DNA of 64,000 nt from Candidatus Pacearchaeota archaeon (GCA_018303825.1 JAGVXK010000021.1:1-64000), one strand, 5' to 3'. Shown: positions 25,321-55,567, counted from the stretch's first letter. Translations and numbers: made by a program. Notes: generated from the sequence alone by a model not told the origin.

Positions 25321-25452
25321 AAAATAGTTGGCACGTTAAGAAAGCCCCTCGTGTCTTGAATATTTGTTCGTGAATCTCTCTTCGAGTGGAATTGACGGCT
25401 ATTTTAAGTTTGGATTTATGATTTGCGGTGGTGGGAAGGTGCGCTTTGTGCA

Positions 25453-25842
25453 TCAAATAGCTACTAATATACTCTCTTTTGCTCTGCTAGTCTCATCTGC
25501 AAATGGAACACCTCTCTTGTCATTATACCATCCATATGTTTCTACTTTAGCTCTTTGTTCTGCAAGTTTCTTTGCAATATCATGTGTTCTTTGCTCCACA
25601 TTTTCACATTCATCGACTATTCCAATAACGCCATGCACATGTTCAATTCTAACTTGCGCTCTATTTTCAAGTAACAAAATAACATATTTGCCATCAATTG
25701 GTTTTTCTGGAGTAGCAACTACTATCGTATTCCATACGTCATCTCTTAAAGGGTTAAAAAATTTAAAAGCAGATATATATTTATAGCCATCATTCCGTTC
25801 TGGTTTCCTTTCCTGCAAAACAATCCTTGGTCCGCTACCCAT
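25453..25842 (-). CDS. Hypothetical protein
   Basis: 129-aa ORF with normal composition. Confidence 0.55.
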   Translation of the reverse strand: MGSGPRIVLQERKPERNDGYKYISAFKFFNPLRDDVWNTIVVATPEKPIDGKYVILLLENRAQVRIEHVHGVIGIVDECENVEQRTHDIAKKLAEQRAKVETYGWYNDKRGVPFADETSRAKESILVAI

Positions 25843-25929
25843 CTTTAAACAATATTCATCGCCCTTTTAATTATTTCTATATTGTAAAATATGTTAGCGC
25901 ACCTTCCCATTTCTTATTCATCAATTATT

Positions 25930-26177
25930 TCGCGAAGCGACTATTTAGGGGCGGGTGGTCGGGGGAATGCAAATCATAAATCCGTTTAATATTTCCGTCA
26001 ATTACGTTTAAGCGAGATTAAACTGTCTGCTTTCTGATTTGGGAAAGGGCTTAAGCGTAACGAGAAGAGAGATTGAGAATTATTTTCATTCTGAAAATAA
26101 CTTCCTATTTAATTTATAATATTAAGAAGCAAATTTCAAGTTCATTTAATCGTTCAGGCTAAAAGAACTTTCAACCA
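25930..26177 (+). repeat. Structured repeat element, copy 1, left half
   Basis: tcgc-gaa-gcga hairpin; caattacgtttaagc...gcttaagcgta arm; 28-nt taatcgttcaggctaaaagaactttcaa identical to 30509-30536. Confidence 0.8.
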
Positions 26178-26236
26178 AAAGAAGACAAATCCGAAAAATA
26201 TATATACCATGATTTATCACTATATTCAATTAACTC

Positions 26237-26260
26237 CATGAGATCTGTAAGGATCTCATG
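26237..26260 (+). promoter_or_regulatory. Inverted repeat/hairpin in the NYN leader
   Basis: catgagatc-tgtaag-gatctcatg, ending 8 nt before the ATG. Confidence 0.5.
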
Positions 26261-26268
26261 TTTTTTAT

Positions 26269-26817
26269 ATGAATTCCAAAAAAGAGAAGGTTGCGATTTA
26301 CATCGATGGTAGTAATTTATATTTCTCAATAAAAGATACATTCAATTGTAAAATTGACTTAGAAAAATTCTGTAAAAAATTAGTGAATGATGATGATTTA
26401 GCGAAGATTAATTATTATATTGCTCCTGTTGAGCAATTAGAAAATCCTAAAGCATACGCTCAACAGCAATCATTCTTTGAAAAATTAAGGAAAATTGATA
26501 AACTAAATCTAATTTTTGGCAGGCTAGAAAAGAGAAAGAAAGATGGAGAAATATACCATGTAGAAAAAGCAACAGATGTAAATCTTGCCCTTGATTTGGC
26601 TTTAGATGCACAAAAAGGGGAATATGATAAGGCTCTTCTTATCTCAAATGATGGTGACTTTTCTGGAGCGGTAACTGCCGCAGTCAGTTTCAAAAGAAAA
26701 GTCATTTATATTGCCATAGGCACCAACAAATCTATATCTTATCATTTGAAGAAAGTGGCATCTGCAACCTTTCGAATTAATAAGGAATTCATTGATGAAT
26801 GTAAATTGGATGAGTAG
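26269..26817 (+). CDS. NYN-domain (LabA/DUF88, PIN-like) ribonuclease
   Basis: VAIYIDGSNLY, EKATDVNLALD, LISNDGDFSGAV; all acidic catalytic residues are present. Confidence 0.9.
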   Translation: MNSKKEKVAIYIDGSNLYFSIKDTFNCKIDLEKFCKKLVNDDDLAKINYYIAPVEQLENPKAYAQQQSFFEKLRKIDKLNLIFGRLEKRKKDGEIYHVEKATDVNLALDLALDAQKGEYDKALLISNDGDFSGAVTAAVSFKRKVIYIAIGTNKSISYHLKKVASATFRINKEFIDECKLDE

Positions 26818-26837
26818 AGTTTTCGGCTATTAGTATA

Positions 26838-27120
26838 TGGTGAAAGTTGGGTTAAATCTCGTTTCGAACTAAGAGAACAATTATGGAATAATTGAGAGAT
26901 TTACCTTTTAGCAGAGATTAGGCGAGTCTGAAAGACCTCGAGCTACGAACTAAGAGTCTCGAGTTAGCTAAACCTCACAAGAATGGGCTCTTTGCGTAAT
27001 TGCTGAGAATCTTATGTTCTTAGGGCATTTCATTTGTATCTGTCGGGGGCGCGTTTTTGCTTCTCGCAGAAAATCTCTGATTTTCTGAGCCATCAAGAAC
27101 TTTGTTCTTGAGGTTTTCTG
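26838..27120 (+). repeat. Structured repeat element, copy 1, right half
   Basis: tggtgaaagtt and cttttagc pair with the left half; gagattaggcgagtc is identical to 30635-30649; ctcgag hairpin; gtaattgctg; terminal hairpins. Confidence 0.8.
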
Positions 27121-27160
27121 AAAAAGAAGATTTTTTATATGTTGTTTATTATTAATATCT

Positions 27161-27478
27161 ATGACTTATGCAGTTTATACAACTGAGAGTTTTGATAAAG
27201 AGGTTGAGAAATTGTCTGGAGGAGACCGAGAGATAATTCAGAAAATGTTTTTTAAGATTAAAGACAATCCTTACGCCAGTAACCAATTAAGATACAAGAA
27301 TCTTAGAGAGAAGCGAATTAGAGAAAAAAGAGTTTATTTTCTAGTTTATGATGATTTGCGAGCAGTTCTTATTGTTGCTATAAGCGGTAAGAAAGACCAA
27401 CAAGCAACAATCAATCATATAATCAATTACTTTGATGATTATAAAGAATACTTGGAAAAATTGCTAGGAAAAGATTAA
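27161..27478 (+). CDS. RelE/ParE-family toxin
   Basis: YAVYTTESFDKEVEKL...IKDNPY...LREKRIREKRVYFLVY. Confidence 0.75.
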   Translation: MTYAVYTTESFDKEVEKLSGGDREIIQKMFFKIKDNPYASNQLRYKNLREKRIREKRVYFLVYDDLRAVLIVAISGKKDQQATINHIINYFDDYKEYLEKLLGKD

Positions 27479-27630
27479 GCAACCTGTCTTACTCTGCCAG
27501 CTTTAACATCTTCTAAACTTGCCTTGAACTGCCTTAATAAATCAAAGTCTATCTTTTCTAGCTCTCTGAGCATAGCTACTTGAGCCTTCATCTTCTCGTA
27601 TTCATCTTTTGGTACCTTTACCATTTCCAT
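27475..27630 (-). CDS. Small antitoxin-like protein (51 aa), convergent to the toxin
   Basis: Hand translation MEMVKVPKDEYEKMKAQVAMLRELEKIDFDLLRQFKASLEDVKAGRVRQVA; the SLEDxKAGR tail is typical of RelB-like antitoxins. Confidence 0.6.
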   Translation of the reverse strand: MEMVKVPKDEYEKMKAQVAMLRELEKIDFDLLRQFKASLEDVKAGRVRQVA

Positions 27631-27687
27631 AAATATTTCTAAGAATCAAAGTTTTTAAGCTTTCTGGAAGTCACTTTTGCCCCCTTG

Positions 27688-27825
27688 TTATTGGTTAATT
27701 ATCTCTATTTTGAGCTCTACTATCGTTCCCGGTTTTAGTCTCTCCTCTAACAATTTAGGCATGATTATTATAGCTTGTTTGCCGTGCTTGGCGATTTTCT
27801 TGATTATTGTGAATTGAGTTGTCAT
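27688..27825 (-). CDS. AbrB/SpoVT-like (DUF2080-like) small protein, 45 aa
   Basis: MTTQFTIIKKIAKHGKQAIIIMPKLLEERLKPGTIVELKIEIINQ, a swapped-hairpin pattern. Confidence 0.6.
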   Translation of the reverse strand: MTTQFTIIKKIAKHGKQAIIIMPKLLEERLKPGTIVELKIEIINQ

Positions 27826-28185
27826 CTTACTAATTTATAGATCTCATAAATAGATACTCCTAAAATTGCATATCTTATTGCAATATTCTTTGCAAAATCC
27901 CAGAAAGGATTACCTAAGGGCGAGCCTAAAAATAAAGTATTAAACTTTATTCCAATAATCTATATTTTCCCACGAGATATCGTAGACAATTGTTTAAAAA
28001 TTTACTAACTTATTCTGCGGTGAGCCCTAAACTATCTTGATCTGGCAATGCATCAGCATAGCAGTCATCTAACAATCTTTCATCAATTCTCTTCAAAGCC
28101 CTTCTTTCTCCAATAATTGGAATTGAATCTTTAACAAGTTCGACTAACGAAATCTTTTTGTTATTTGCCTTCTCTTTCATTTTTT

Positions 28186-28896
28186 CTAACCTCGTATTGA
28201 ATCTTCTACAATTCTATTCACTTCTGAAAGTATGCGTTCCCTCGTTCTCTGACCAAAAATCCTATGGATTAATGAACTATCGTCATAACTTTGTAAAACA
28301 AACTCAACATTTGGAGGAGATGTAAATTTCTTAAATCTTCTAAGGGGATAAATAGTAGTAACTTTAACCACACAACCATTTTGTTCTCCACCATTTCTTC
28401 TTTCAAACAAATCTGTTTCTGCATTCTTTCCATATTCGTCTACTACTCGATGGTCGTCTAATACTTGGAGGTATTGTAAATATGGAATTTGACCTTTAGG
28501 ACAAACGTTTTTTGGTCTAAAACTAAAAGGTTCTTTGTTAATTTTATCTGCTACAAAGGTCAAGATGTCTTCGGGTGCCTTGAATAAATGTCTACCAAAA
28601 TCCCTAAAATCTTGCCCTAAAATACCTATTTGAACGCCTTCCCTAGCAGAAAAACTATAATCTTTCTTTGTATCAAATTCTGTCCAAATATGCCCGCCTA
28701 GACTCTCTAAGTGCCCAGTACCATCCAGATGGTTTACAAGAAAAGCGGGCCAAGTTCCCTTATTGTAATATCCTACCTGACATCCTGTAATTCTTACATT
28801 GCCCATTCCATGCAAAAGGTACATTAAATGCTCTGGGCTAATACTATCAAATATGGCACTGTTTTGTACTCTCTTATCATACTTTTGTTCAATCAT
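28186..28896 (-). CDS. Hypothetical protein
   Basis: 236-aa ORF coupled to the upstream ORF. Confidence 0.65.
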   Translation of the reverse strand: MIEQKYDKRVQNSAIFDSISPEHLMYLLHGMGNVRITGCQVGYYNKGTWPAFLVNHLDGTGHLESLGGHIWTEFDTKKDYSFSAREGVQIGILGQDFRDFGRHLFKAPEDILTFVADKINKEPFSFRPKNVCPKGQIPYLQYLQVLDDHRVVDEYGKNAETDLFERRNGGEQNGCVVKVTTIYPLRRFKKFTSPPNVEFVLQSYDDSSLIHRIFGQRTRERILSEVNRIVEDSIRG

Positions 28897-29474
28897 TTTC
28901 TTTCACCTCCGAATTTTTTCTGAAGAAAATCCAATGCTAGTTGCCTTTCTCTTTCTGATTCAAAAATAACAAGGGGCCTTGGCCAAGGTTTGTTACATTT
29001 TTTAATAAAAAATTCAAGCAGGGATTGATGAGAAGAAGCTAATAGATGATCAAACCCGCTAGGGGTTAAATCTGAGTAACCTGGTGTCATCGGGCGACCT
29101 ATTTTGTCTGCGATAGAATTAACCTCATAGGGTCTTGGTGTGAATGATAACGCATAAACCCTCAAACTATCTCCAAACCTACCTGTATTGACGTGCTGAA
29201 TTAGGCATAATTGATCTCCCAAATAAAGATGCATTTGCATATCCATTTTATCTCTTTCATCCGCATTACAATAAATACGCCCGCCAGGAACAACGGGTGA
29301 TGCTCCGCATAGAGTTATTTCGCCAAACTGAGCAACCCTCTCTAAGTAAATTGGACCCCCATCATTAAATCTCGGTGCACATAATGATAAGTTAACACTT
29401 CTCTCTCTACAAAAAATTGCGTTTGCCATTTCTTGATGGGCGTCTTTTCTTTCTATGTTTAATCTTATTCTCAT
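28893..29474 (-). CDS. Hypothetical protein
   Basis: 193-aa ORF divergent from the TrmB-like gene. Confidence 0.65.
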   Translation of the reverse strand: MRIRLNIERKDAHQEMANAIFCRERSVNLSLCAPRFNDGGPIYLERVAQFGEITLCGASPVVPGGRIYCNADERDKMDMQMHLYLGDQLCLIQHVNTGRFGDSLRVYALSFTPRPYEVNSIADKIGRPMTPGYSDLTPSGFDHLLASSHQSLLEFFIKKCNKPWPRPLVIFESERERQLALDFLQKKFGGERK

Positions 29475-29602
29475 TTTCTATTTCTCCCAAGTTTATTTAC
29501 TATCATAAGATAATGGCATAATAAAGTGTATTTAAATTATTGTTGTAAGGAAGCTATTAACAATTTAGAAAGAATTAAATATAACAATTCACTTGATTTT
29601 AT

Positions 29603-30316
29603 ATGGAAATAACTACACTCGAGAGTCTTGGAATGAACAAAACAGAGGCCAAAGTATATCTGGCTTTACTTGAATTGGGAGAAGTACAAGCAGGACAGAT
29701 AAGTAAAAAATCAGGAGTTAATAGAACAAGCACGTATGATTCATTAGAAAGACTAATATCGAAGGGTCTCGTTAAATATGTTATTCAATCAAATAAAAAG
29801 GTATTCGGGGCAGATAAACCCAATAAAATAGTTGAGCAATTAAAAGAACAGGAGAGAATAGCTAAGCAAATACTGCCAGAACTTAATAATTTGTTTAAAG
29901 AATCAAAAAAAGATGAGGAATCTGAGATCTATAAAGGCAGAAAAGGGATAAGGTCTATCTTGTTTGAAATAGTAAAATATAAAGAATATATTGCTTTTGG
30001 CTCAAAAGGCAAGTTTTTAGAGATAATGAAGCACGATTTTGAGATTTTTCAAAAAAGGAAGAAAAAATTAAAGATAAAAGCCAGAGTAATATTAAGAGAA
30101 TCTGATAGGACTTCTGAATCTGTTAAGGTTGCTTATAGTGATTTTAAATTTGTTCCTGATGAATATGGATCTCCGACTACTACATTTGTTTATGGAAATA
30201 ATATTGCCATAATTGTCTGGCTGTCTGAGCCAATCGCTACAGTAATAAAGAGTAAAGAGGTCGCTGAAAGCTATTCGCATTATTTTGAACTACTTTGGAA
30301 ACTCGCAAAGCCCTAG
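29603..30316 (+). CDS. TrmB-family HTH transcriptional regulator
   Basis: LGMNKTEAKVYLALLELG...RTSTYDSLERLISKGLV; effector domain IYKGRKGIRS...TTTFVYGNNIAII. Confidence 0.88.
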   Translation: MEITTLESLGMNKTEAKVYLALLELGEVQAGQISKKSGVNRTSTYDSLERLISKGLVKYVIQSNKKVFGADKPNKIVEQLKEQERIAKQILPELNNLFKESKKDEESEIYKGRKGIRSILFEIVKYKEYIAFGSKGKFLEIMKHDFEIFQKRKKKLKIKARVILRESDRTSESVKVAYSDFKFVPDEYGSPTTTFVYGNNIAIIVWLSEPIATVIKSKEVAESYSHYFELLWKLAKP

Positions 30317-30326
30317 ATGATACCTT

Positions 30327-30779
30327 CTTCGGCGTGAGCCGAAGCTCTCTGTGCGAAGCACCCAAGCCCCCGACCAATTTCTGTTTGACTGAAATGCCTA
30401 CAATCAGCAATTTCGTTTAAGCTTGATTAAACCTTTGGATTTTTTGTTAGTGGCTTAAGCGGAGCAAAGAGCCAATTACTATTTTAAAGTTGAGGTTTAC
30501 TTTTCGTCTAATCGTTCAGGCTAAAAGAACTTTCAAGGCAATTGTTAAAAGTCAAAATAATTGAAAGTTACAGAAAATTATGGTTTCCATAAAGGAAATA
30601 CTTTAGGATAAAGTAAATAATTTTTCTTTTAGTGGAGATTAGGCGAGTCCAAAGGACCTCTTGGTGCGAATTAAGAGCCAAGAGTTAGTAAACCACAACG
30701 AAATATTTGCGAATAAGTGTAATTGCTGGCTATTTTGGTTTTGGGGCTGGCGAGGCGTTTTTCTAAGGGGCACTTTTTC
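30327..30779 (+). repeat. Structured repeat element, copy 2 (complete, no cargo)
   Basis: Nested stems: cagcaatt/aattgctg, ttcgtttaagc/gcttaagcgga, ggtttact/agtaaacc, tcgtctaatc/gattaggcga, ctaaaaga/tcttttag, aactttcaa/ttgaaagtt, aaaattat/ataatttt, acttta-gga-taaagt, ctcttgg/ccaagag. Confidence 0.85.
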
Positions 30780-30788
30780 CTAGTCTAA

Positions 30789-31295
30789 CTAGTTAATTAA
30801 AAACCTATAATAAGATGTAAGAAAATCCAAATTATCTTTAGGATTTATATTCATATTTCCCTCTCCTGTAAAAATAACCTTGTCCCTGAGAGGATATAAT
30901 GGTGACGACCTAAACTCTACATATCCAACTCCCGCCACCCTAAACCATGGCTCAAAGTCATCATGACCACCCGTGGGCAAAATTATCCCATTTCTAATCT
31001 CACTCAAAATATGTACAATTTCTGATCTATCCCTCATTCTTGTCAATTTAGCAAAATTGAATTTTGTTATTGCATGTGCAACAAGCTTCCTATAAAACTC
31101 TGTGCCATACTCGTGATCTGAATTTGAATCGAAGTTCCTTCGACAAAAATGAAATTCCAGAGGATTTCCTTCAAAATTGGATGACTTAATCAAATTAAGA
31201 CTATCTTCCAAAAACACGTCTAACGCATTCCGAATACACAACGGGTACTTACCAACCCTTCTGAATATAAACGCGTCATCATATAACTTCTCCAT
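30789..31295 (-). CDS. Hypothetical protein
   Basis: 168-aa ORF divergent from the second TrmB-like gene. Confidence 0.6.
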   Translation of the reverse strand: MEKLYDDAFIFRRVGKYPLCIRNALDVFLEDSLNLIKSSNFEGNPLEFHFCRRNFDSNSDHEYGTEFYRKLVAHAITKFNFAKLTRMRDRSEIVHILSEIRNGIILPTGGHDDFEPWFRVAGVGYVEFRSSPLYPLRDKVIFTGEGNMNINPKDNLDFLTSYYRFLIN

Positions 31296-31329
31296 GAACT
31301 CTCTGTCTTGCCTAGTCTTTTAAATCTTA

Positions 31330-31350
31330 GTTGTTATTATTAATAACAAC
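31330..31350. promoter_or_regulatory. Perfect 21-bp palindrome between divergent TATA boxes (candidate operator)
   Basis: gttgttatta-t-taataacaac, flanked by tttaaat on both sides. Confidence 0.55.
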
Positions 31351-31380
31351 ATTTAAATAATCACTACAATAAAACTAATA

Positions 31381-32088
31381 ATGGAAGAACTCATAGAAAA
31401 TTTAAAAATGGCCGGTCTAACTGGAAATGAATCAAAAGTTTACGTAGGTCTAATTAAGATTGGAGAAACTTCAGCCAACGAATTAGCAAAAAATCTGAGT
31501 TTAGACAGAACATTAACATATACTATTCTAAACCATTTAATAGAAAAGGGAATGGTTGGCTATGTTATCAAAGCAAATAAAAAGTTCTTCTCGGCATCTG
31601 AACCACAAAACCTATTAAATAAAATAAAAAAAGATGAAACAGCGATAAAAAGAGTGATAGAAACTTTAAAAACAATGAAAACAACAAACGAGCCCTCCCC
31701 GAAAGTGAATGTTTATGATGGGAAAGAGGGACTCAGAACATTCTTAAGGCTTCTGACAAAAGATAAGAAGATTTCTGCATTTGGAGCGACAGGCAGATTA
31801 TATGACTCTCTCTTCGAAACAGAAGCCATCGCAAAAGAATTAAAAAAAACATTATCTGCTAGAATTATTGCTAGTAATAAATATCGCACCCATCCAATTA
31901 GGAAAATAAAGAGAATTGAAGTAAGATATTTAGATGTGGACAACGAGGCAACAACAACCATTTTCGGAGATTATATTGCCCTACATCTTTTAACAGATAA
32001 ACCATTCATAATAACAATCAAGAACAAAGAAATTGCGCATGGTTATCTAAACTATTTCAATCTTCTCTGGAAAATCGCCAAGAAATAA
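31381..32088 (+). CDS. TrmB-family HTH transcriptional regulator (paralogue)
   Basis: AGLTGNESKVYVGLIKIG...RTLTYTILNHLIEKGMV, VYDGKEGLRT, TTTIFGDYIAL. Confidence 0.88.
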   Translation: MEELIENLKMAGLTGNESKVYVGLIKIGETSANELAKNLSLDRTLTYTILNHLIEKGMVGYVIKANKKFFSASEPQNLLNKIKKDETAIKRVIETLKTMKTTNEPSPKVNVYDGKEGLRTFLRLLTKDKKISAFGATGRLYDSLFETEAIAKELKKTLSARIIASNKYRTHPIRKIKRIEVRYLDVDNEATTTIFGDYIALHLLTDKPFIITIKNKEIAHGYLNYFNLLWKIAKK

Positions 32089-32136
32089 TCTGAAAAAGTG
32101 CCCCGTTCTGCTGTTTGATAATTATTGTTCGTATTT

Positions 32137-32515
32137 TCGCCAACAGGCGACTATCTGTGCGTAGCACCACCGAGCCAGCCCCTATCGAACTTCCAGCAAT
32201 TTTGTTTAAACTAGATTAAACGCTCTGCGTCTGATTTCTGAAAATGGTTTAAACGAAACGAATGAGCAAATCCCTAAAGAGGTTTACTTATCGTTTAATC
32301 GTTCGTAATAAGAGTGGTTTTAGCCATTAATACTTAAATCGTATGAGCTAAAACTAAGACTAAATTCCGTCTTTCTACTAAAGAAAGTATTTCAGGATGA
32401 AATAAGGAATTTATCTCTTATGTGAGATTAGCCGACCACTTTAGTAGCGCGAGCTGATTACGAAAATCCTCGCGACTTTTGCTTTGTTCTCAGCCGATTT
32501 CGAAGCGTAATTGCC
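32137..32515 (+). repeat. Structured repeat element, copy 3
   Basis: gtgc-gta-gcac; cagcaatt...gtaattgcc; tttgtttaaac/gtttaaacgaa; tcgtttaatc/gattagccga; tggttttagc/gctaaaacta; taaattcc/ggaattta; tttca-gga-tgaaa; cgcgag/ctcgcg. Confidence 0.8.
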
Positions 32516-32548
32516 AAGATTTATAAAGTAGTAGATTTTATTTAGATT

Positions 32549-32836
32549 ATGGGTTGGAAAAACTGGAGTTATTGGTTGAGAGGAGGTTTTTTGCTAGCAA
32601 CGATTTACTTTATTTATACTTTACTTATAAATCAATTATATGGGACAGTTATAAAAGCAGGATTATATCGCATATTATATGAGGTCGGATATCCCTTCAA
32701 TTTTGTACGGTTTTTGGTTATGGGCTTTAATGAATCATTCATAGCCATAATTTTCAGTTGGATAATTGCATATATTGTCTTTTTCCTTCTTGGAGCAATA
32801 ATTGGTTGGATCGTTGGTAAAATAAAATCTAAGTAA
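32549..32836 (+). CDS. Small membrane protein
   Basis: 95 aa with 2-3 hydrophobic helices; lies between repeat copies 3 and 4. Confidence 0.7.
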   Translation: MGWKNWSYWLRGGFLLATIYFIYTLLINQLYGTVIKAGLYRILYEVGYPFNFVRFLVMGFNESFIAIIFSWIIAYIVFFLLGAIIGWIVGKIKSK

Positions 32837-32853
32837 TTCTTTTTTGAATAATT

Positions 32854-33075
32854 GGCAATTTCGTTTAAGCAAGCTATTGTGCGACATCTCTGATTCGCAC
32901 CCAGCGGTTAAGCGGAGCGAGAAATTAACGGGCTGAGAATTGCAAGCCGAAAGGGGCAAGAGTTTACAGGCAATATTCTATTTGTTACTATGGAAACTCT
33001 GAAGGGGAAGGGGCTTTCTTTTTCTTGAGGGGATTTGCAACCCGAGCGATAGCGAAGGGCAAAGCAAAAGTTTGG
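32854..33075 (+). repeat. Structured repeat element, copy 4 (partial: first arm plus right end)
   Basis: ggcaatttcgtttaagc...ggttaagcgga...aattgc; ggggct right-end motif; ccc-gagcgatagcgaa-ggg. Confidence 0.7.
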
Positions 33076-51376: not shown

Positions 51377-52861
51377 TTATCCGCAATTATTATTTAACTG
51401 GCAGGCATATAAACCATTAATTTCCTGCTGTGAAAGATTTCTATTCCATATCATTACTTCGTCTATTGTTCCATTAAAAACAACCTCTGGATAAGGGAAG
51501 ATTCTCTTCAATGCGCCTATTGAAATATGACTTGGGTCACCATTTACCCCAAAGCTATCCGCTGCCCAATCACTTTGTGCCCCTGAGCCGCATGGATAAT
51601 TATTGAATGTAACTGTTTTTTCCACATTATCCAAAAATACCCTTATCTTATTTATTCCATCAGCCATAAAAACAACAAAATGCCAACTTCCATTATTAAC
51701 TTCAGCATCTGTGAAAAAGTGGCTCCAGCATCCTACTCCATTTATTTGATATTCGATAGTTAAATTCCCATTTGATACAAACCATGCATAATGGCCCCTC
51801 CAATTAAATATTTGATTTCCATATCCAATAATTATTCCGGAAGTAGATGAATTTGTCTTTATCCAGGCAGCAATAGTCCCTGATTGGGTGGTATCTAAAA
51901 GATCATCTGAATTGGTAATAGCGTAATCATCCAGCCCATCAAAATCGATTGCTTTTCCATAACCGTTTCTACCAGAAGAATAAATTGGCATCCCGCCATA
52001 AAATGTTCCATGATAATTGTTACCCGAGCTATCTAGAGTGTTGTCTTCCATTTTATAATAAGCTATCAATCCGCCTGCTGGAACAACAAATTGGAATGTC
52101 TGATTATTGGCACTTGCATTCACAGATTCTCCGATTGAAGCATTCTTAGCTCTTATATGATAATATTGCTGTGTTAAGGGCAACAAACCAAAATGTGCAT
52201 ACGAAACAATATTATTTGGAAGATCTATCAACAAAGAATATGGACCGTTGACATTGCCGGAATTCTCTAAAACATATCCTTCTTCATTTGAAACATCATT
52301 CCAGGTCAAATTAATGCTATCATAGGAAAGAGTGCTTGCTTTAAAATTGGCAGGAGGATTTATTGTTGGGACTGGAGGTGGTGCGATAATTCCCTGCCCA
52401 GAAGAGGAAATTGTATAGCAATCTTCCTGTTTTCCCTGCAATTCCCTCCCCTCTTTATTCAAAACAAAAGGGACAACACAAACCTTTGTTAAATTCATCA
52501 ATCCAGAACTATAAGAGATAGTTTTTCCAATTGTCTGCAATTCTTGCAGAGATTCGTTATATCTAAATGCCTTTTTATTCCCCTTAATGTCTTCTAAGAC
52601 AATAATAAAAGCGCTCATTGTTCCAATCCCTTCCTGCCTCTTGACAACTAATGATATATCTGTGCTATTTACCTTTACAGATTCTTCAGGAACTGTCAAT
52701 CTTGTTGTAAATACAGAAGCATCTACCTGACTTCCAGATTTAGAAATATTATACTTGAAGAATGCCCATATTAAAATGATCAAAGCCAAGGCAAGAAGTA
52801 TAATTAAGATAGTGGTAATTATCGCGCTTATCCCTTTTTTGTTCACCATCCTTTTATTCAT
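51377..52861 (-). CDS. Class III signal (pilin-like) protein with FN3 and LamG domains, copy 1
   Basis: KKG|ISAIITTILIILLAL; FN3 (PPANFKA...INLTWND...EEGYVLE); LamG (FDGLDDY...WHFVV...IDEVMIWNRNLS). Confidence 0.85.
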   Translation of the reverse strand: MNKRMVNKKGISAIITTILIILLALALIILIWAFFKYNISKSGSQVDASVFTTRLTVPEESVKVNSTDISLVVKRQEGIGTMSAFIIVLEDIKGNKKAFRYNESLQELQTIGKTISYSSGLMNLTKVCVVPFVLNKEGRELQGKQEDCYTISSSGQGIIAPPPVPTINPPANFKASTLSYDSINLTWNDVSNEEGYVLENSGNVNGPYSLLIDLPNNIVSYAHFGLLPLTQQYYHIRAKNASIGESVNASANNQTFQFVVPAGGLIAYYKMEDNTLDSSGNNYHGTFYGGMPIYSSGRNGYGKAIDFDGLDDYAITNSDDLLDTTQSGTIAAWIKTNSSTSGIIIGYGNQIFNWRGHYAWFVSNGNLTIEYQINGVGCWSHFFTDAEVNNGSWHFVVFMADGINKIRVFLDNVEKTVTFNNYPCGSGAQSDWAADSFGVNGDPSHISIGALKRIFPYPEVVFNGTIDEVMIWNRNLSQQEINGLYACQLNNNCG

Positions 52862-53779: not shown

Positions 53780-54976
53780 CTATTTAGTCATAATCTCAAA
53801 GCCATCCATATGGTTTAATTTATAATCTTTCCCAACCGCCTTTTTAGTTCTTACATCTACTGCTTTCACAAAATTCTTCCCAATATCAGAATGTAATCTA
53901 TAGGCAAAGTCAAGGGCAGTGCTGCCTTTCTTCATTAAATAACAATCTGGAAGAATATTTCCTTTTGAATCAGCCAATTTATCTCCCGCTGGAAATATAG
54001 CGATGTATCCTAGAACTTCAAGGACTGTTTTATTCAAAACTTGCTGCACCCCAGTAGTCCCAAACTCGTTCACGACTTCTTTTATCCTATCAAGAGCCTG
54101 CTTTTGCTTTCCGGAAAGCTCTTTTTTCTCAATAAATAAGCTTTCTCCTGCAACATATTCAATTAATCCTGCCTTGTCTGCCTCCCTTAATGCTAATTCC
54201 CCGTCAGCAAAGCAAGGAACCATAGGATAATCAAACTCTTTTTTTACTTTTTCATAATTTGCAGGTCCATTTGGAGTATCAACTTTATTTGCGGCAATTA
54301 CCATTGGTTTTGTATATCTTCTTAATTCTCTTGCGAAATTAAATACTTGTTCATCAGTCCAGGAAGCAGGCTTTTCATAATTTAATTGCATTTTTAGCAT
54401 TAAATGCTTAACATCATCTACAGTTACTTTCAATCCAGAAAACTGCTTTGCAACAGATTCAGCAAAATTAGAGTGCTGCATTTCTAATGTTCTTGCAAAA
54501 GTCTTCCAAACTTTTCTTAAAATCCCACTATACCATAAATCCAATTCCTTTTCAATTATTCTTATGTCATTTCCAGGATAATAGTCTTTTGTTGGCTTTC
54601 CTACCCCGTCAAATTCTCCTGACATGTCAACAATATGAATAAATGCATCTGCGGCGCTTAAATCAGCAAGGAATTCATTACCCAATCCTTTTCCCTCTGA
54701 AGCACCTTCAACAAGTCCAGCAACGTCCATTAAATCAAAGGGGACAAATCTCCATATTTTATCCCCTGCTTTTCTAACATAGCCCTCTCTCGGATTGCTT
54801 ATCTTCCCAAATTCAGCCGCAAGGTCAGGAATTTTGATATATCCCATCCCATGATTAGGTTTTATTGTCGCGAAGGGATAGCTCGCAATAAGAACATCCA
54901 TGAGCGTTGCTGCCTTAAAGAAAGTTGATTTGCCTGCGTTGGGCCTTCCTAGAACACCAATTAACATATATCGCAA
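53780..54976 (-). CDS. ychF: YchF/Obg-family translation-associated NTPase with TGS domain
   Basis: GRPNAGKST, YPFATIKPN, DVAGLVEGASEGKGLGNEFL, NKVD, TALDFAYRLHSDIG. Confidence 0.9.
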   Translation of the reverse strand: MRYMLIGVLGRPNAGKSTFFKAATLMDVLIASYPFATIKPNHGMGYIKIPDLAAEFGKISNPREGYVRKAGDKIWRFVPFDLMDVAGLVEGASEGKGLGNEFLADLSAADAFIHIVDMSGEFDGVGKPTKDYYPGNDIRIIEKELDLWYSGILRKVWKTFARTLEMQHSNFAESVAKQFSGLKVTVDDVKHLMLKMQLNYEKPASWTDEQVFNFARELRRYTKPMVIAANKVDTPNGPANYEKVKKEFDYPMVPCFADGELALREADKAGLIEYVAGESLFIEKKELSGKQKQALDRIKEVVNEFGTTGVQQVLNKTVLEVLGYIAIFPAGDKLADSKGNILPDCYLMKKGSTALDFAYRLHSDIGKNFVKAVDVRTKKAVGKDYKLNHMDGFEIMTK

Positions 54977-54997
54977 AGAAAATAGGAGTTTAATAAA

Positions 54998-55567
54998 TTA
55001 TTTGTTTTCAAGTTTTTCACCAATATTCTTATATATCTCTTCTATCTGCTTCACTGACCCTGCTAAATCTCCCTCATTAACAATTACAAAATGAGCCATT
55101 TCAATAAGCTTCCCAGTTTGTTGACCCATAGGGTCATTTACATCAAAATTATCCCTCTCATCCATTTTTAGAAAATCTTCCCATGTTTTTGGGTCAGATG
55201 ATTTGTTTCTTCTCAAAATCCTCTCAAATCTAGCTTTTTGTGGAGCATCAACTCCAATCAAAACAAAATCCTTTACCGCCTCTTTGAGAAAGACGGCTTC
55301 CCCTGTATTCCTTAAACTATCTATGATATAGTTTTTTCCAGGCTCCATCTTATTCAAAAACATCTTCATCAAAACACCAACCCCTTGCTCCTTCCTCAAC
55401 CTATCAGCCAAATCCTGCTGATTCTTTCTAGTTATTTCCATTCCTTTTTTTTGTAGCTCTTCATTTATTAATTTAAAAGTTTCAAAATAGATAAACCCCT
55501 TATCCCTCAAAAATTGGGTAAGCGTCTCTTTCCCAGCGCCAACTCTTCCACACATACCAATAATCAT
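54998..55567 (-). CDS. P-loop nucleotide kinase (dephospho-CoA/NMP kinase-like)
   Basis: IIGMCGRVGAGKET, IIDSLRN, IGVDAP...RFER. Confidence 0.75.
   Translation of the reverse strand: MIIGMCGRVGAGKETLTQFLRDKGFIYFETFKLINEELQKKGMEITRKNQQDLADRLRKEQGVGVLMKMFLNKMEPGKNYIIDSLRNTGEAVFLKEAVKDFVLIGVDAPQKARFERILRRNKSSDPKTWEDFLKMDERDNFDVNDPMGQQTGKLIEMAHFVIVNEGDLAGSVKQIEEIYKNIGEKLENK

Follow-up and report, generated by a model that had tools for sequence, protein, structure and literature searches.

A folded repeat in the gene arrays of a Candidatus Pacearchaeota genome, and its apical loop as a possible cargo slot for an NYN ribonuclease gene and toxin modules

Archaea of the DPANN group have tiny genomes with few recognised mobile elements, and the acquisition and shuffling of their accessory genes are poorly understood. 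In a 64 000-nucleotide stretch of a Candidatus Pacearchaeota genome (the window; positions count from its first letter, and features lie on the plus strand unless stated otherwise), an intact gene for an NYN-domain ribonuclease lies in the terminal loop of a folded repeat, at a place where two further copies of the repeat hold only a short loop. This raises the question of whether the fold and the nuclease form one functional module, or whether the gene is cargo that the repeat has taken up. On balance, we favour the reading that the repeat, a modular fold interspersed among the accessory genes of arrays in DPANN archaea of the Woesearchaeota/Pacearchaeota type, has a dedicated slot at the apical loop of one of its helices, and that the NYN gene occupies this slot as cargo. 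Literature searches found no published description of the element.

The window derives from contig C22 of a 23-contig genome (806 kb, ~86 % complete, 35 % G+C). It carries three full copies of the element (25996–27007, 30405–30729 and 32194–32518), and five more are present on contig C18; within the host genome the copies are confined to these two arrays and are not dispersed. A full copy comprises a 5′ hairpin (D5), a variable linker, a central domain and D3, has five helices and measures ~330 nt (325–370) when empty. The central domain has a long outer helix, within which lie the cargo helix and a three-way junction that bears two small hairpins. The array in the window starts with a D3 remnant of a preceding copy (25339–25397; nhmmer with the D3 profile, E 5e-6), which is 96 % identical to the D3 and tail of metagenome contig L225, and ends with a lone D5 (32854–32923; nhmmer, E 2e-4). 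The usual layout of such arrays places a D5-less central domain first and a lone D5 last, and single units of the order central domain, D3, gene and D5 were found in G114, G163 and G115. Covariance model R1, built from eight central domains of two genera, detected this domain in 19 of the 151 genera searched in the family, and the element-bearing relatives are metagenome-assembled genomes of Candidatus Woesearchaeota, Pacearchaeota and Nanoarchaeota. These populations occur in groundwater, in samples of the Hainich and Rifle type.

Copy 1 begins with its D5 (25996–26066; nhmmer, E 5e-19), a hairpin running from CAATTaCGTTTAAGC to GCTTAAGCG with a stem that covaries among copies. The left strand of the central domain (26143–26177) contains the 5′ strand of helix 1 (26147–26165) and the left arm of the cargo helix (aactttcaacca, 26166–26177). 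An insert of 660 nt (26178–26837) follows in the apical loop of that helix; it is missing in copies 2 and 3 and in 28 empty copies, in which the loop measures 18–31 nt. The right strand (26838–26925; model R1, 72 bits, E 1e-12; 96 % identical to k18, a sister copy on C18) supplies the right arm tggtgaaagtt (26838–26848), the three-way junction with its two covarying hairpins and the 3′ strand of helix 1 (26905–26920). The outer strands pair as gctaaaag (26158–26165) with cttttagc (26905–26912) and ttaatc (26146–26151) with gatta (26916–26920). D3 (26927–27007; nhmmer, E 8e-13) ends in GTAATTGC, which is complementary to GCAATT, the consensus start of D5; the D5 of copy 1 itself begins tCAATT. 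The equivalent stem closes loops of only ~24 nt in copy 2 and ~22 nt in copy 3, both empty, the latter with covarying arms ggttttagc and gctaaaac. The first-pass annotation, which had placed the NYN gene in the terminal loop of copy 1 and short loops in the two downstream copies, was accurate in its positions and loop sizes.

Between D3 of copy 1 and the next cassette lies a G-rich tail with a T5 run (gtcgggggcgcgttttt, 27042–27060), which is kept in k18, marks the edge of that cassette and, from its sequence, is likely to be an archaeal terminator. The 49 nt just past the T5 run (27065–27113) are missing in the otherwise 96 % identical C18 copy. The next cassette (27161–27630, from the list of ORFs) comprises a RelE/ParE-like gene (27161–27478, plus strand) and a small convergent ORF (27475–27630, minus strand), with homologues beside element copies in C18, G045 and G151; the C18 homologue of the RelE/ParE-like gene matches Pfam ParE_toxin at 5e-6. 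A RelE/ParE-like gene of ~105–113 aa recurs directly downstream of copies in two genera (window 27161–27630; C18 17180–17521; L063 8570–9106). The pair in the host genome is only ~60 % identical, although the adjoining repeat is 96 % identical. Clustering of neighbours at 20 loci identified TrmB-like, RelE-like and Lrp-like regulators, and the cargo itself, as the recurrent genes.

The fold is conserved by compensatory change, far beyond chance. RNAalifold applied to five empty copies returned 78 pairs, 27 of them with compensatory changes, and for the central domain alone, across eight copies from two genera, it returned 47 pairs, again with 27 compensatory. Among 18 distinct high-scoring copies from 9 genomes, 94.2 % of cells pair, compared with 76 % after shuffling and 36–49 % when the partners are slid, and changes on both sides were seen in 31 of the 47 central-domain pairs and in 6/10 pairs of the cargo helix. 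Folding is strand-specific, with 130–145 bits on one strand and ~20 bits on the opposite strand of the same DNA, and the excess of G-U over A-C combinations (55 vs 19) likewise points to one strand as the one that folds. Unpaired bases are conserved at the three-way junction. Rfam gave no relevant match, either across the whole 64-kb window at the gathering threshold or in 25700–33000 at E up to 10; a tRNA/tmRNA scan found none, and no K-turn or bulge-helix-bulge motif was seen in the sequence.

The minimum-free-energy structure of the full 1012-nt copy 1, computed with RNA parameters, is predicted to keep both helices paired around the 660-nt insert; the pair probability is 0.7–0.8 for seven of the eight arm pairs examined and 0.39 for the eighth. 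This agrees with the earlier proposal that the flanking helices pair across the gene. Removal of the insert (26178–26837) in silico is predicted to restore the architecture of copy 2, again as had been anticipated. The arms are mismatched in three of nine filled copies examined, so pairing across the cargo is not always kept.

Our study also revealed signs of exchange at this loop. Copy 1 and k18 are identical at 30/30 nt up to the left arm, and at 226 of 236 nt from the 3′ loop words through D3 and the G-rich tail, and between these flanks lie 650 nt in copy 1 and 490 nt in k18 that are unrelated, the latter with DUF4258 and DUF2283 genes. The 5′ half of copy 1 matches copy k13 instead, with the switch at a conserved TTAATCGTTC box, which makes the copies mosaics. 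Two hairpin backgrounds, one with arms CAACC/GGTG and one with CAAGG/ATTG, carry the same NYN cassette at an identical point of the loop, and both also exist as empty copies. In G045:C3 (= L064 9033–9387; also L026 2237–2648), the central domain lies on the strand opposite to its own D5 and D3, an arrangement whose sequence reads as an inversion across the inverted repeats of the outer helix. Genes between elements occur in both orientations. The swap, the inversion and the genes in either orientation are DNA-level rearrangements at stem-forming inverted repeats, as judged by sequence comparison. The edges of the cargo showed weak and inconsistent similarities only, with neither a target-site duplication nor a conserved crossover motif. 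A second left arm behind the NYN stop codon is apparent only, and is partly cassette sequence common to the free copy in G011. Exact-protein look-ups revealed no presence/absence polymorphism at the window site among 16–17 assemblies of the same population that carry the same flanking protein, the NYN gene being present in every listed contig that spans it. The lack of target duplication and of site polymorphism, together with the mismatched arms in 3/9 copies and the lack of a linked recombinase, counts against a dedicated slot.

The strongest rival holds that the repeat is a structured RNA, either part of a 3′ UTR or an independent non-coding RNA transcribed by read-through from the gene upstream, with an apical loop that merely tolerates insertions, so that toxin cassettes pile up there by tolerance. 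We regard this as the lesser possibility, but one with a substantial case. The strand-specific pairing, the G-U excess, the conserved unpaired bases of the junction and the upstream genes, which share the strand of the element in about 70 % of cases, fit RNA as well as they fit folded single-stranded DNA. D5 has no upstream promoter, the G-rich tail and T5 run after D3 resemble an archaeal terminator, and it is RNA folding that predicts pairing of the arms across the insert. Against an RNA stand the failure to match Rfam, the array heads that have no D5, and the inverted central domain, reversed cargo and two-way genes between elements, which are events at the level of DNA. In addition, transcription from the cargo's own promoter, which lies in the loop, would meet a T-run ahead of the right arm, and a single transcript from arm to arm is therefore not expected from this promoter.

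Support for a dedicated slot comes from what the loop holds elsewhere. The collected loci comprise 28 filled and 28 empty loops, a sample of relatives and metagenome contigs that were found by the left-arm pattern and that is biased and partly redundant; a 16-mer scan of contigs returned mostly chance matches in bacteria, with only about nine archaeal loci usable. The cargo in filled slots measures 0.5–1.6 kb and forms self-contained transcription units of promoter, ORFs and T-run. Each has a BRE/TATA box within ~30 nt of the left arm, then ORFs, then a T-rich run shortly before the 3′ loop words and the right arm. In copy 1, the BRE/TATA-like promoter box (ccgaaaaatatatata, 26191–26206) was read from the sequence, and the TATA boxes align in all orthologues. 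The 3′ part of the original loop (cggctattagtata, 26824–26837) is kept behind the cargo and compares with ttagtataagg in the empty copy k14; homology to a free NYN locus stops at 26823.

A PBECR2-like toxin with a DUF2283 partner was found in ~17 of the 28 filled loops, across at least five genera, and DUF4258 with DUF2283 in four, one of them reversed (L175). The remaining loops hold ParE/RelE modules, stacks of two or three modules, or NYN, the last on six contigs (the window, L228, L242, L243, L248 and L236), which brings the unrelated cargo families in the same slot to at least four. Matches above the Pfam cut-off were obtained for DUF4258 (3e-8), DUF2283 (1e-14) and ParE_toxin (2e-8), the toxins being predicted, and the commonest cargo falls below the cut-off, with PBECR2 at 6e-6 (26.9 bits vs 27.1) and DUF2283 at 9e-4 (19.9 vs 23). 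Adjacent small toxin and antitoxin genes with family matches mark such cargo as predicted type II toxin–antitoxin modules. Literature searches on DUF4258 with DUF2283 found nothing specific. By their sequences, nearly all occupants of the slot would be toxin-type nucleases. The same tip acts as a recurrent, swappable slot for toxin-type RNase genes, which indicates a cargo site and not a dedicated machine of RNA plus NYN. The suggestion of a cargo-capturing element made at first pass is borne out, with different genes in the same loop of at least 28 copies from many contigs and genera, and with unrelated cargo between the near-identical flanks of a sister copy. One loop (L230 207–1302) carries at least three modules in series, beginning with a small antitoxin-like gene and a ParE/RelE gene convergent with it and continuing with PBECR-like plus DUF2283; this contig stops ahead of the right arm.

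Occupancy differs with the type of copy. Cargo was present in 18 of 20 copies without D5 and in 10 of 34 copies preceded by D5 (Fisher p 1.6e-5, a value that overstates the significance, as the copies are related). Copy 1, which is internal, bears a D5 and is filled, belongs to the minority class. In terms of position, array-leading D5-less copies are loaded with a toxin module in 18/20 cases and internal copies are empty in 24/34; a rule that the toxin module is carried by the leading element of an array is a by-product of this work.

The same distribution could be read in reverse. If the filled form were ancestral, a toxin–antitoxin cassette with structured flanks would have given rise to empty copies by internal deletion, as miniature elements arise from full ones. 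The filled state of the leading copies, the prevalence of PBECR2-like plus DUF2283 cargo across genera and the ttagtata words, which empty loops keep and which follow the cargo in filled ones, agree with this. However, the slot houses at least four unrelated cargo families, the cargo differs between near-identical flanks, and the NYN cassette clearly came from outside the element. The cargo also encodes no mobility function, and the copies are gathered in two arrays instead of being dispersed. We therefore consider descent from a filled ancestor improbable.

The NYN gene also has a history of its own, apart from the fold. The ORF (26269–26817, 182 aa) matches Pfam PF01936 over residues 7–165 (69 bits against a cut-off of 24.2; E 7.9e-19) and PDB entry 2QIP (E 5e-5). 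Its acidic active-site motifs IDGSN, TDVN and SNDGDF are intact and align with VDVQN, DV and SGDGDF of 2QIP, as in a putative RNase. The gene is preceded by a leader hairpin (26237–26260) and then a U-run, the hairpin ending 8 nt ahead of the ATG. Hairpin and U-run are kept with compensatory changes in 14 of 14 NYN loci, whether in or out of the element. In the close orthologues (L082–L094), the leader consists of a TATA box, ~25 nt, a hairpin CCAUGRGR...YCYCAUG and the U-run just ahead of the ATG. Through this hairpin the NYN RNase may regulate its own expression, or the hairpin may act as an attenuator.

Of the 151 genomes of the family, 78 encode NYN homologues. The central domain is missing within 1.5 kb of thirteen close orthologues (63–87 % aa identity) from other genera, and dozens of paralogues also lack the fold. 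Nucleotide homology between the window and the closest free orthologue, G011, is limited to 26193–26823, which spans the TATA box, the leader hairpin, the ORF and a few bases more. The unit of TATA box, leader hairpin, ORF and T-run is thus an independently mobile expression cassette, as judged by comparison of the loci. Perfect direct repeats of 25–36 bp bracket the NYN cassette in 3 of 17 loci: L085 (G041:C1, 31 bp), L093 (G172:C17, 36 bp) and L098 (G148:C13, 25 bp). The left repeat lies 100–140 nt before the ATG and the right one at the stop codon. Such lengths are unusual for target duplications, and the repeat in L093 apparently duplicates the start of the downstream gene. The protein tree groups the NYNs found in loops with the free copy of G011 in a single clade (98/99 support). 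The contigs with NYN in the loop have only the element and NYN in common with the window, at 76–84 % identity and in different arrays. Together, the free orthologues, the clade and the level of identity indicate that one lineage of the element captured NYN once and kept it through substantial divergence.

These results leave little room for a functional module of RNA and NYN, as the first-pass annotation had proposed, in which the RNase would bind or process the fold around its gene, or be under the control of that fold. The in-loop unit does persist in six contigs despite their divergence, the cargo families found are nuclease-type toxins in nearly all occupants, and NYN has no protein partner in the loop. 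As a specific partnership the proposal nonetheless does not hold up: the thirteen close orthologues and the paralogues manage without the fold, one free copy nests in the in-loop clade, half of the copies are empty, most of the filled ones hold other genes, and what accompanies NYN in cis at every locus is not the repeat but the gene's own leader hairpin. We judge such a module very unlikely. A one-off neutral insertion of a mobile NYN cassette, at a site without significance, is less credible still: such cassettes do land in unrelated places, sometimes with long direct repeats, and no polymorphism was seen at the window site, but the 28 loops filled at the same position by several cargo families contradict it, as does the presence of the cassette at an identical position in two hairpin backgrounds. 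The annotation had kept this outcome for the case that orthologues lacked the flanks and no other loop carried cargo, and only the former was observed.

The element was compared with known systems. Its nearest analogy is an integron cassette array without an integrase. Integron arrays and CALINs, including the VCR repeats of the Vibrio superintegron and archaeal integrons, likewise consist of accessory genes separated by a folded repeat, with repeats far more alike than the genes between them; toxin–antitoxin cassettes with their own promoters are common there and are thought to stabilise the arrays, and most arrays have no adjacent recombinase. As repeats alternate with unrelated genes here, and different genes stand between near-identical repeats, the array is integron-like by functional analogy. 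Archaeal integrons have been described, with canonical attC sites (Ghaly et al. 2022, PMC9668308). An attC site, however, is a single imperfect hairpin of 55–141 nt, whereas the present element of 325–370 nt has three domains and a three-way junction. Inspection of the aligned copies by eye showed no complementary R″/R′ boxes (RYYYAAC ... GTTRRRY), and the element was rejected as an attC site; only some copies have GTTRRRY-like words behind the right arm, with no complementary RYYYAAC. Identity with an integron was likewise rejected, as no IntI-type tyrosine recombinase adjoins the array. Furthermore, the better-folding strand is here the coding strand, and genes sit at hairpin tips, which means that they are bracketed by inverted and not by direct site halves.

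Group I and group II introns, with their homing endonuclease or reverse transcriptase genes, resemble the element in carrying a gene in a terminal loop without disturbing the pairing, and in the coexistence of empty and ORF-bearing versions. The element differs in having no intron core, host gene or exons, and its cargo is non-mobilising, brings along a promoter and a terminator and can be exchanged between families. A group I intron with a homing endonuclease gene was rejected, as there is no Rfam core match, the element is intergenic and its cargo consists of NYN or toxin–antitoxin genes; a HEARO/omega-RNA with IscB or TnpB (IS200/IS605) was rejected for want of an Rfam match and of any such neighbour gene in 20 loci. 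The likeness to both that had been drawn at first pass therefore applies to the architecture, an ORF in a tolerated peripheral loop, and does not extend to an Rfam match, a host gene, a homing endonuclease or IscB/TnpB. A miniature inverted-repeat transposable element was also rejected, since copies occur in two arrays only and no duplications flank the element or the cargo.

BOX, ERIC and REP/BIME sequences are modular, base-paired intergenic repeats of bacteria, some with insertions at fixed internal sites, and IS1397 and ISKpn1 are insertion sequences that target the hairpin loops of such repeats. In the present case, by contrast, the inserts are toxin modules without a transposase and the repeats are clustered in arrays. 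The NYN protein shares its fold motifs and acidic residues with LabA-like NYN proteins (PF01936; 2QIP is VPA0982 of Vibrio parahaemolyticus), but its gene, together with a conserved leader hairpin, behaves as a small mobile cassette.

The arrays showed no linkage to a recombinase, a transposase or a reverse transcriptase, and neither IscB/TnpB nor a homing endonuclease was seen among the neighbours in 20 loci. The host genome has two PF00589 (Xer-like) genes, which lie on C4 (19377–19847) and C5 (17891–18376) and not on C22 or C18, and the copy number of PF00589 per genome does not track the element. By tblastn, a Xer-like gene was present in only two of ~60 fetched element-bearing stretches; the seven queries were six Xer-like proteins of ~270 aa and one 38-aa mis-extraction.

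If the loop is a slot, paired arms would bring the ends of the cargo together and could make the hairpin tip a preferred place for DNA recombination, whether insertion, replacement, inversion or deletion. Exchange might proceed through an enzyme acting in trans, or by homologous exchange through the conserved arms. Resident toxin modules might serve, through addiction or defence, as a ‘lock’ that retains the array, a role that would fit the almost constant loading of the first, D5-less element. We propose tentatively, as a conjecture that may well prove wrong, that the hairpin tips are the crossover points of an undescribed DPANN cassette-exchange system that works on folded DNA without a linked integrase, with a toxin or RNase lock at the head of the array and the slot as a site from which newly arrived nuclease genes, NYN among them, are expressed. 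If true, a conserved fold whose hairpin tips repeatedly hold exchangeable, self-expressed nuclease or toxin genes would represent a way of storing genes that differs from integrons, and would offer a concrete substrate for finding the responsible enzyme. A further by-product of our study is the recognition of the NYN cassettes as a family of small mobile units that share a conserved leader hairpin.

Two minor observations concern tyrosine recombinases. In all three copies in the window, D5 contains GTTTAA and TTAAAC separated by 6 nt (25996–26013, 30405–30422 and 32194–32211), that is, short inverted arms around a 6-bp spacer. This layout resembles the core site of a tyrosine recombinase, yet the first arm also forms part of the covarying D5 stem. 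Secondly, one of the only two places with a recombinase near the element, L074 (G127:C20 52064–55307), holds within 3.3 kb an element copy (52064–52203), a Xer-like recombinase gene (53867–54340) and an NYN paralogue (54864–55307).
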